Assembly (NCBI RefSeq): GCF_016026235.1
Contig: NZ_CP065613.1
Origin: Escherichia coli
GTDB lineage: Bacteria > Pseudomonadota > Gammaproteobacteria > Enterobacterales > Enterobacteriaceae
Strand: one strand, 5' to 3'
DNA: 64,000 nucleotides
The notes under the pieces are model-generated. The model saw only the letters and a program-made list of their open reading frames with translations. It was not told the DNA's origin and made no database searches. This document shows positions 42,474 through 45,347 of the stretch, piece by piece. Position 1 is the stretch's first letter, and each line of letters opens with the position of its first letter. Both the position numbers and the translations under genes were made by a program.

Positions 42474-43523
42474 TTATTCCCTGATTCGGATGGTGATGGC
42501 GGGCGGTACTTTCGGCTGACCAATAAAGCTGGTTCTACCGAGGCGGGAGCTGGCCGGATCGCCAAGGCGCATCCCTTTAGCCTGCTGTGGTGCCAGGCAC
42601 AGCCGTAAATCCCAAGCAAACTGGTCGCGCAGAATAAAGGAAAGGAACATGGTCAGAGGCAGGTGATTTTCGCCATCGGGTAAAAATGAGAGATAACGCT
42701 CCCGCGACAGGTTGCCAATCTGCAACAGAAATTTTCCGCTGCGATCCGGCACCCGTGCGCCGAGGGTAAAATTAACGCCAAGTATGGAGCGTCCCGGAAT
42801 ATGTCCAGCCGTTTTTCCTTTCGGATTACGTACACCAAGCCGGTTCTGGTGTGCCGGATCAATGGCGACTTTACGCAGTTGCCAGCGTTCAATGGTGACA
42901 TCCGGCAAATCAAAACAGTGCGACACCAGATTACAGATAACCTCCGGCGCGCGGCCTGGTGTTGCCAGAATTCCGGCGTAAGCCAGCATTTTGCTGTGGT
43001 TAATGGCAAGCCTGTCGCGCACGCTCTGATTACCCAGCCCGACCAGCGCGTACATGCGCTGTGAAAAGGTGTCAGTGCCGCCATTACGAAAGCAGATGTA
43101 GTAGCGGTATTTGCGCCAGGCATGATAGGCAAACTGTGTCCAGCGGTGGCTGAACAGATCGAGAAATTCTTTAAGGCCGTCTTCGTTCTGTGCGGACTCC
43201 TGCGCCATCTGATCCAGATAATAGCCCGGTAGCGGCGACTGGCTGCCGGAAAAACCAAGGAACCGGGTTTGCAGTACATACTGTCCGTTCTGGCTACGGG
43301 AAAGCGCACTCAGGTCCGTACCCGGAAAACCGATACTGGCGTCAGAGCTGAAACGCACGATCTCCCGGGCAGGCTCGGTACGCAGGGAAATATCCTGGCC
43401 CGGAGCGCCATACCGACGGTACAGCGCCTCCATCAGCACATAGAAATTGCAGTTGCGCACATCCGCCGATAACGGCGGTTTTACCGCTATATAAGGGCGT
43501 GCTGACCCATTTTCTCCTGCCAT
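42474..43523 (-). CDS. tssG: T6SS baseplate protein TssG
   Basis: 349 aa; follows tssF. Confidence 0.8.
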   Translation of the reverse strand: MAGENGSARPYIAVKPPLSADVRNCNFYVLMEALYRRYGAPGQDISLRTEPAREIVRFSSDASIGFPGTDLSALSRSQNGQYVLQTRFLGFSGSQSPLPGYYLDQMAQESAQNEDGLKEFLDLFSHRWTQFAYHAWRKYRYYICFRNGGTDTFSQRMYALVGLGNQSVRDRLAINHSKMLAYAGILATPGRAPEVICNLVSHCFDLPDVTIERWQLRKVAIDPAHQNRLGVRNPKGKTAGHIPGRSILGVNFTLGARVPDRSGKFLLQIGNLSRERYLSFLPDGENHLPLTMFLSFILRDQFAWDLRLCLAPQQAKGMRLGDPASSRLGRTSFIGQPKVPPAITIRIRE

Positions 43524-43936
43524 TCCCAGGCCTCCTGACTTTCCGTGTTGATAATTTTCAGACAGTGGTACGAATTGATGCTGGCGTAGAGAGCAAAAAA
43601 GTGCGAGAGCACTGTACCAAGAAGATAAATTTCACCTTCGCAGATAAATGGATCGGGACGTATCCACAGCGTGGTCGCCAGCCCGCGAACCGGCACGCCT
43701 TTAAACAACCTGTCAACAGGTTTGGTTTCGAGTTTTTCTATGGCATCCAGTTTCTGGCGCGACAGTCTGGCCCGCTGCGGATGGTGAGCGCCTGGCAGGT
43801 CGAAGGTCCGCAGGATCTGGATCAGTGTCTCCCTGTCCAGCAGGGAGAGGTAGTTCAGGTTCATCGCGGAAATCAGCGACCAGTGCATGTCAGCCGTCCG
43901 TGACTGGCCAGAGCGGCTGCGTTGGGCGTGTGACAT
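43487..43936 (-). CDS. tssF: probable TssF C-terminal segment in a different frame
   Basis: 149 aa ORF overlapping the end of the upstream tssF ORF by 47 nt and the start of tssG; combined length (~620 aa) matches full-length TssF. Confidence 0.5.
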   Translation of the reverse strand: MSHAQRSRSGQSRTADMHWSLISAMNLNYLSLLDRETLIQILRTFDLPGAHHPQRARLSRQKLDAIEKLETKPVDRLFKGVPVRGLATTLWIRPDPFICEGEIYLLGTVLSHFFALYASINSYHCLKIINTESQEAWEWQEKMGQHALI

Positions 43937-45347
43937 TATGAAATGAGGCCACCGCCGGGTTTTTGTTGACGGCCACGCAGATATCGCCGATATGCAGCCG
44001 AGCAGGGATCATACGGTTGGTACAGATTAATGACGTGGTGATCACATCATCATTAAACCGTGAGCTGTCCGGAATGCTGCCGTCCGCATGGACAAAGGCG
44101 ATACTATGTTCAAGCCCGCGGTGAAACAGGGATGTTTTAGTCCGGTGATGCCAGTAGACGACTTCCCGCTGGCGGCTGTACTCCATCTGGTGCTGGAAAC
44201 TTTCAAATTCGGGCCAGACACGCGCCTGGCTGCCAGGGTTGGATTCAGTACCTGAAACTTTGACTTTGCTGGTGACTGTGCTTATCTGAAAAATGTCATA
44301 AGCGTCGGGATGCCGGTGGCTGGCGCGCAGCGGGTATTCCGCTATCCGTCCATCAGGCCTGACGGGTTCCGCATAATGCGTAAACAGGTTAATGGCTGGC
44401 GTACAGTGCAGACGCAGTGAGTCCTGGCGTAGCTTGATGTCGGCAGGTAACGGGCGGTTAAAGTGCAGGCGCAGCGTAAACGCGCTGACCGAGAAATCGT
44501 CCGGTAGTGGCGCAACATCGCGCAGATGGAAAAAAAAGAAGGCTTCGGGATAGCAGAAATACTCCTGGAGTACCCGATAGCCGCTGTGGACATTTTTCGG
44601 CCACGGTAGCAGGGCGTCCTGGTTTTCAAATCCGGCGGCCTCCAGCCACAGATCCGGCAGCGGCAGGCGGTACTCTCCGGCAATCAGTTCCGCATCCATC
44701 AGGCATTCGCAAAACCACAGATAAAGCTGGTGTCGGGTATAATCGTCTTCATTACCCAGCCAGAACGTTATTTTGTTCAGGTCAAGCATGGCGGGGGAGA
44801 CATTGTTATCTGCGGTAAAACTGATATCTATGATGCCTTCTTTCAGGCTGCTGGCGTTGCGGGTGTCGAGAATGCGCAGTGGTTGCAGCCAGATATCGCG
44901 CGCCAGCGTGAAATGACAGGCTACGGAAGAAACGATTTTATCATGATTGTCAGACAGCACCTTCTGAGCAGCCAGGGCGGACTTTTCTGAGCGGCTTCTG
45001 ATCAGTTCATTACGGCAGACTTGAACAGGGACTTTTAACTGATCGGTTTTGGGTTCATAGGCAATAACCGTCATGGCCGGAACTGGGCGTAAATAGTTTG
45101 CCCACAGCATACGGATTAGCCCATGGGTGAATTCGGGGAATTCGTCCTCAAGTTTCTGACGCAGGCTACCGGACATAAAGGCAAAGGCTTCCATCAGGCG
45201 CTCCACGTCCGGATCACCCTCTTTCTCGGCCAGAAAGTGGGCCAGATGTGGTTTTTCCTGCGCCAGCAGTTTGCCAAGCTGGCGAAGATAATCCAGCTCT
45301 TCGCGGTAGTAACGTTCTTCAAAAGCCACAGAGATCACTCCACACAA
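43890..45347 (-). CDS. tssF: T6SS baseplate protein TssF, N-terminal ~485 aa segment (gene appears split)
   Basis: TssF-like N-terminus (FEERYYREELDYLR...DPDVERLMEAFAFMSG); ORF ends at 43890, about 130 aa short of typical TssF length. Confidence 0.75.
   Translation of the reverse strand: MCGVISVAFEERYYREELDYLRQLGKLLAQEKPHLAHFLAEKEGDPDVERLMEAFAFMSGSLRQKLEDEFPEFTHGLIRMLWANYLRPVPAMTVIAYEPKTDQLKVPVQVCRNELIRSRSEKSALAAQKVLSDNHDKIVSSVACHFTLARDIWLQPLRILDTRNASSLKEGIIDISFTADNNVSPAMLDLNKITFWLGNEDDYTRHQLYLWFCECLMDAELIAGEYRLPLPDLWLEAAGFENQDALLPWPKNVHSGYRVLQEYFCYPEAFFFFHLRDVAPLPDDFSVSAFTLRLHFNRPLPADIKLRQDSLRLHCTPAINLFTHYAEPVRPDGRIAEYPLRASHRHPDAYDIFQISTVTSKVKVSGTESNPGSQARVWPEFESFQHQMEYSRQREVVYWHHRTKTSLFHRGLEHSIAFVHADGSIPDSSRFNDDVITTSLICTNRMIPARLHIGDICVAVNKNPAVASFHNVTRPTQPLWPVTDG

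Follow-up and report, generated by a model that had tools for sequence, protein, structure and literature searches.

The aspV-linked T6SS island and its split tssF gene

The window analysed here, a stretch of 64,000 nucleotides (nt) from the Escherichia coli contig NZ_CP065613.1, comprises a type VI secretion system (T6SS) island, in which tssF, the gene for the essential baseplate protein TssF, is split by a single inserted base. This E. coli island is linked to tRNA-Asp (aspV), and strain 042 carries the same locus as EC042_RS01175-01210. Along the window, tilS, an insertion sequence (IS) element of the IS3 family, nlpE, proS, metQIN, an rRNA operon and the genes from dkgB to dnaQ precede tRNA-Asp (26826-26902), which is followed by the T6SS island of approximately 32 kb, an IS4-family transposase, yafV, ivy and fadE. 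The core genes are arranged in the order tssB-tssC-tssE-tssF-tssG-tagH-tssJ-tssK-tssL-tssH-vasI-tssA-tssM, with the split gene residing in a T6SS-core context between tssE and tssG.

A previous sequence-only reading of this DNA had described a TssF-like open reading frame (ORF) of 485 amino acids (aa) and a 149-aa ORF in another frame, which overlap by 47 nt. The ORF listing and direct reading of the sequence agree with this description and place the two ORFs at 43890..45347 and 43487..43936, respectively, both on the minus strand. The NCBIfam profile for TssF (TIGR03359) has 600 positions, of which 3-466 are matched by the first ORF with 402.6 bits and 465-600 by the second with 130.1 bits, the latter match starting at ORF residue 13. 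Since the two matches adjoin, the ORFs represent consecutive parts of one TssF. The N-terminal fragment passes the curated cut-off of the profile (260.3 bits), whereas the C-terminal fragment alone stays below it, as expected for a fragment. Thus, the 149-aa ORF does cover the TssF C-terminus, as had been proposed, with true homology from Met481 on. No single polypeptide extends over the whole profile, because codon 479 is followed by a TGA and the remaining codons lie in the +1 frame. This makes the gene a tssF pseudogene or a split gene rather than an intact member of the family.

The nature of the lesion emerges from a global alignment with the tssF alleles of E. coli 042 and of strain FDAARGOS_943, the only close complete relative (99.9% identity), in which tssF is intact. 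At window position 43892, the coding strand contains an additional T (an A on the plus strand), and this insertion of one base at position 1437 of the gene is the only indel in tssF compared to either strain. The alignment of both fragments to full-length TssF, which had been suggested as a check, hence places the frame change at this base, and the suspected frameshift comes down to a single insertion that separates the two fragments. The reference sequence GGC GAC ATG CAC TGG, encoding Gly479, Asp480, Met481, His and Trp, reads GGC TGA C ATG CAC TGG in the window. The inserted T itself generates the TGA stop (43892-43890) directly after Gly479, such that the first stop in frame 0 occupies codon 480. 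The native ATG of Met481 (43888) follows one spacer nucleotide past the stop and is now in the +1 frame.

The boundaries of the fragments can be defined further by the RefSeq annotation of homologues, according to which the true start likely is the GTG at 45329 rather than the TTG at 45347, and intact tssF alleles encode 613 aa. The N-terminal fragment then comprises 479 aa. The 47-nt overlap is an artefact of mechanical ORF calling; the second reading frame is open from 44008. If the 613-aa TssF is compared to the window by tblastn, aa 1-479 are found in frame -3 and aa 479-613 in frame -1. Removal of the T in silico restores a 613-aa TssF that is 99.8% identical to the FDAARGOS_943 allele and differs from it solely by the substitution P280S, at a residue that varies among TssF homologues. 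The sequence-only reading had estimated that the fragments together reach the size of a normal TssF, and the length of the repaired product agrees with this estimate. The features of the region are compiled in Table 1.

Table 1. Features of the tssF region (positions refer to the window)
Feature	Position	Strand	Description
tssE	45335..45760	-	141 aa, intact, directly upstream of tssF; TIGR03357, 131.6 bits; 100% identical over full length to FDAARGOS_943
tssF pseudogene	43487..45329	-	1,843 nt, i.e., the intact 1,842 nt plus one base; between tssE and tssG
N-terminal fragment ORF	43890..45329	-	479 aa plus stop; N-terminal helices, central beta-barrel domain and linker; STL99794.1
Upstream extension of the 149-aa ORF	43889..43936	-	16 residues; out-of-frame reading of tssF codons 465-479; no TssF homology
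Inserted base	43892	-	T on coding strand, A on plus strand
Premature TGA	43890..43892	-	Made by the insertion, after Gly479
C-terminal fragment ORF	43487..43888	-	133 aa plus stop, +1 frame from native Met481; whole C-terminal domain; STL99797.1
tssG	42474..43523	-	349 aa, intact; TIGR03347, 353 bits; 100% identical over full length to FDAARGOS_943

Distribution of the insertion

Among the 5,426 complete E. coli genomes searched by megablast with positions 43400-45400, 549 contain the locus, and all 25 matches listed were one base shorter than the query. A 71-nt query with the insertion at its centre matched 547 complete E. coli genomes that have the locus; the extra base was found in none of them, and the best matches (98.6%) correspond to a one-base gap. 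An exact 34-mer with the insertion had no match in the GTDB species representatives or in the JGI metagenomes, a result that is uninformative on the wider distribution.

These counts bear on the notion that TssF is normally encoded by two genes in the T6SS type of the window. Nothing but the two ORFs themselves speaks for such a layout, and its probability is practically negligible. Homologues that naturally end near residue 485 and are followed by a separate, conserved gene were not encountered: the locus is free of the insertion in 547 of 547 genomes, tssF is annotated in all 25 listed genomes and measures 1,842 nt in both genomes whose coordinates were read, and the TIGR03359 profile is continuous through the junction. 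At the protein level, the majority of the 150 best matches to the C-terminal part are representative homologues of 570-640 aa, which carry the C-terminal domain at their end. A phmmer search with the 133-aa fragment against 1.84 billion representatives, in which the genomic context was examined for three, yielded sporadic fragments only and no conserved stand-alone C-domain genes. The short C-domain ORFs (approximately 125-150 aa checked) are rare, of scattered lengths and present on one or two contigs each, and they are located beside broken N-terminal fragments, where the context suffices to tell. No split was found to be conserved across independent lineages. The natural two-gene layout is thus refuted by the absence of the insertion from all 547 genomes and by the full-length homologues.

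The exact 479-aa product is found in public protein collections on 23 contigs, 21 of which are 20-50 kb in length, one 10-20 kb and one 4.56 Mb, and both the 479-aa and the 133-aa product are deposited as E. coli proteins (Table 1). The inserted base is present in both of the contigs that were re-read, NJNA01000040.1 (GCA_002467115.1) and the Logan assembly of SRR3578993, whose loci match the window with 100% identity over 7.4 and 5.4 kb, respectively. In the window, the rRNA operon and the IS4 element lie 41,156 bp apart, which is also the length of NJNA01000040.1 and fits a short-read assembly of an identical genome structure.

A sequencing or assembly error in a strain that really has an intact tssF, which the sequence-only reading had left open, is strongly disfavoured by these data and appears very improbable. 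Single-base indels are the commonest assembly error, and several public assemblies of the locus (L007, L009, L010 and L016) contain many homopolymer indels that resemble errors and probably are assembly errors. Yet, the insertion in the window does not fall into a homopolymer, and the window shows almost no further indels compared to its nearest relative over approximately 59 kb; the few others comprise one 9-bp repeat unit, which keeps the frame, a deletion of 157 bp and three single-base indels that do not affect intact genes. Because 23 contigs share the exact product, and a different NCBI assembly as well as a separate run from the Sequence Read Archive carry the base, the insertion is, as judged by these sequences, a real mutation of one clone.

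The backbone of the window (positions 1-12500) shares 99.9% identity with FDAARGOS_943, whereas its identity to every other complete E. coli genome, of which there are more than 5,400, does not exceed 98.2%, indicating that the window stems from a rarely sequenced lineage. Among the differences to FDAARGOS_943, the 157-bp deletion maps to window positions 27287-27304 (36418-36574 of the FDAARGOS_943 locus, L003), between the imperfect direct repeats GGAGAATTAAGAGGCACA and GGAGATTCAGAGGCACA. It lies inside a gene for a 261-aa hypothetical protein adjoining aspV, of which aa 77-261 alone still match; as 157 is not a multiple of three, this gene is truncated in the window. Within tssM (approximately 33290-33325), the 9-bp tandem unit AAACAGCAG occurs twice in the window and three times in FDAARGOS_943, an in-frame difference of three residues of TssM. 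Moreover, positions 58238-59114 correspond by homology to a transposase pseudogene of the ISAs1 family in FDAARGOS_943, which is annotated in that strain as frameshifted and with an internal stop; the stretch in the window bears an additional 1-nt deletion at 58318.

The missing C-terminal domain and its predicted consequences

The remaining T6SS genes of the window were assessed by tblastn with the FDAARGOS_943 proteins. Full-length matches of 99.4-100% identity were obtained for tssB, tssE, tssG, tagH, tssJ, tssK, tssL, tssH, vasI, tssA, tssM and vasL, and likewise for both hcp genes, vgrG, the M35 peptidase, Tla1, Tli1a and Tle1, while the tssC product differs from the 042 protein by one substitution. 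Hence, tssF is the sole broken T6SS core gene in the window, and since the other T6SS genes are all full length, the insertion appears to be recent. The start of tssG overlaps the 3' end of tssF by 37 nt and is preceded by its own strong Shine-Dalgarno (SD) sequence (SD:anti-SD -10.3 kcal/mol). A promoter and terminator scan of positions 43300-44200 revealed nothing above chance.

The protein that is interrupted has a known architecture. TssF of enteroaggregative E. coli (EAEC) consists of a central beta-barrel domain (residues 90-457) and a C-terminal domain (residues 460-587), and in the baseplate wedge two TssF and one TssG build a triangular core with their C-terminal domains (Park et al. 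2018, PMC6300606). A HMMER alignment to the EAEC structures 6GIY and 6N38 pairs G479, D480 and M481 of the window allele with residues 458, 459 and 460. An AlphaFold2 (AF2) model of the repaired allele, built with 87 homologues, reached a predicted local distance difference test (pLDDT) score of 90.6 and a predicted template modelling (pTM) score of 0.87. In this model the last strand of the central domain comprises residues 461-465, residues 466-478 form a coil, and a helix at 479-490 starts the C-terminal domain. The top Foldseek matches of the model were 6N38_H (E 1.4e-42, template modelling scores 0.75/0.85), 6N38_I and 6GIY. The repaired allele displays the three-domain TssF fold, in which N-terminal helices and central beta-barrels are followed by an alpha/beta domain at the C-terminus. 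The break coincides exactly with the boundary between the central and the C-terminal domain, where residues 478-482 are variable, hydrophilic and a site of insertions among homologues.

Translation from the GTG at 45329 would end after Gly479, and the resulting 479-aa product would be devoid of the C-terminal domain (residues 481-613), which locks TssF to TssG. With this domain no longer covalently attached, assembly of the wedge and the baseplate would be expected to fail, and a T6SS lacking its baseplate would neither fire nor secrete Hcp. A tssF deletion serves as the T6SS-defective control mutant in Shigella sonnei (PMC10924462), and in evolved EAEC the single TssF substitution D43H abolished the antibacterial activity of the T6SS. 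Since the C-terminal domain is structurally important in the wedge, tssF deletions are standard T6SS-null controls and D43H alone abolishes activity, tssF of the window has probably lost its function, and the T6SS is probably silent. Overall, we regard it as quite likely that a real, recent and clone-specific 1-bp insertion inactivates tssF and disables an otherwise intact T6SS.

Several points weigh against this interpretation. A cluster without further decay also fits its continued use, and the 23 contigs may represent closely related isolates or repeated sequencing of one strain. Furthermore, the break falls exactly on a domain boundary, and the ATG of Met481, 1 nt past the stop, is preceded by a moderate SD sequence (-5.7 kcal/mol). 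The C-terminal domain could thus be made separately and might complement the N-terminal fragment in trans.

The latter points lead to an alternative, in which ribosomes terminate at the UGA (43892-43890) and re-initiate at the AUG of Met481, and the chains 1-479 and 481-613, with only Asp480 lost, form a working wedge with TssG. A cut precisely at the domain boundary, as suggested by the alignment to EAEC residues 458-460 as well as by the modelled coil and helix, renders a two-chain TssF physically conceivable, and the tolerance of residues 478-482 to variation and insertion points in the same direction. The N-terminal helix and the C-terminal domain each have contacts of their own within the TssF2-TssG heterotrimer (PMC6300606), gene callers repeatedly predict the 133-aa ORF, the SD score lies inside the range of the genuine starts of the cluster (-2.3 to -10.3 kcal/mol), and the remaining cluster is intact. 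However, an SD score of -5 kcal/mol is reached by 14% of random 20-mers from the window, Met481 is present in only 6 of 87 homologues, and that the break coincides with the domain boundary was a post hoc observation. The stand-alone C-domain ORFs observed elsewhere are singletons next to broken N-terminal fragments, often in noisy or decayed loci, and do not form a conserved arrangement; in addition, the same T6SS is disabled by IS insertion in the sister strain. On balance, a functional two-chain TssF seems unlikely. Should it nevertheless exist, it would constitute a natural experiment, according to which the covalent link between the central and the C-terminal domain is dispensable in the conserved gp6/TssF baseplate protein. 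The allele would then be a ready tool to study the supply of TssF domains as separate chains, with a bearing on wedge assembly in contractile injection systems.

Another alternative holds that full-length TssF is produced by recoding, either through a +1 frameshift at GGC UGA C, as in prfB, or through transcriptional slippage, as in tssM of Citrobacter rodentium. A +1 shift is exactly what the insertion needs, and the stop UGA is followed by C, which is the prfB context and a weak terminator. The prfB (RF2) gene uses CUU UGA C; the tssF site shares with it the in-frame UGA followed by C and the +1 shift required to continue, but differs by GGC in place of CUU. By codon-anticodon reasoning, GGC in the P-site re-pairs poorly in the +1 frame (GCU), with a central mismatch, and hence is not a shift-prone codon. 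An SD-like stimulator at the prfB spacing is missing, and the arrangement is not conserved, as it occurs in 0 of 547 genomes and is seen in one clone only. The unsuitable P-site codon and the lack of conservation speak against a prfB-like shift. Precedent for the rescue of an interrupted T6SS core gene is provided by C. rodentium tssM1, where the C-terminal domain likewise is encoded downstream in another frame (Gueguen et al. 2014, PMC4256274). The C. rodentium gene harbours a run of 11 A before the stop, which slippage needs, and both protein forms are required (PMC4256274). In tssF, the only run of at least four identical bases in the stretch open in both frames (44008-43890, 119 nt) is A5, and the insertion lies outside runs; this maximum speaks against transcriptional slippage. 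Taken together, the production of full-length TssF by recoding is highly improbable.

Outside tssF, the window contains some further features of note. A C-terminal remnant of vgrG (53388-53678) is 57% identical to aa 630-731 of the intact VgrG (49216-51615). The module downstream of the remnant (53739-57982) comprises the Tla1 chaperone (53739-54509), two tandem Tli1a/DUF3304 immunity genes (54823-55377 and 55362-55904), which are 60% identical, and the Tle1 phospholipase (55889-57982). The IS4-family transposase (60025-61266) at the far edge of the island marks the end point of the 41,156-bp public contig. The IS3-family element between tilS and nlpE (1930-3287) has an orfA/orfB pair, is termed IS1397-like in the annotation of other genomes and is also present in FDAARGOS_943.

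T6SS decay in relatives and comparison with known systems

The sister strain FDAARGOS_943 has preserved tssF; yet its island (L003) has been hit by IS elements. The gene tssC is split by IS21, IS600 is located beside a vgrG remnant, and IS1 resides in a DUF3304 immunity-type gene (lesions at 14313-17932, 4528-5225 and 6602-7758 of that locus). These are independent lesions of the same island in a sister strain, and the disruption of the same T6SS by IS elements suggests that the system is dispensable in the lineage. In other E. coli lineages, tssF is affected by nonsense codons at positions 471 and 474 (L008 and L011), and in other lineages or gut metagenome contigs by deletions or replacements of 438-510 bp (L013 and L015). 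A recurrent splitting of tssF near codon 480, as the nonsense codons 471 and 474 might imply, was considered and attributed to ascertainment, as the loci had been retrieved for a called 133-aa ORF.

If the gene of the window is a plain pseudogene, an otherwise complete T6SS island is probably silent, and surveys of gene presence would wrongly call the strain T6SS-positive.

The repaired TssF shares with EAEC Sci-1 TssF (TIGR03359/PF05947; PDB 6GIY, 6GJ1 and 6N38) the family, the fold and the gene order tssE-tssF-tssG. The gene in the window differs in that its frame is broken after residue 479 by the 1-nt insertion and that the identity is only approximately 27%, because the EAEC protein belongs to a different E. 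coli T6SS cluster. The junction in tssF resembles the termination-reinitiation sites of bacterial operons, where stop and start codons lie close together; in tssF, UGA and AUG are 1 nt apart, and a moderate SD sequence lies upstream. However, the known cases join two evolved genes, while the tssF junction arose accidentally inside one gene, and its second product is only predicted.

The loss of a T6SS through a small indel is already a well-known phenomenon. Indels, stop codons and IS elements have inactivated the S. sonnei T6SS, which is described as analogous to that of enterohaemorrhagic E. coli (EHEC) EDL933, and Hcp is not secreted (PMC10924462). The insertion in the window would add another case of lineage-specific T6SS loss, beside the IS insertions of the sister strain and the several lesions of S. 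sonnei. The window and S. sonnei have in common the decay of T6SS core genes in a related enterobacterial cluster, but the genes concerned are distinct: in S. sonnei tssM, tssH, tssK and tssC are hit and tssF is spared (PMC10924462), whereas in the window tssF alone is hit.

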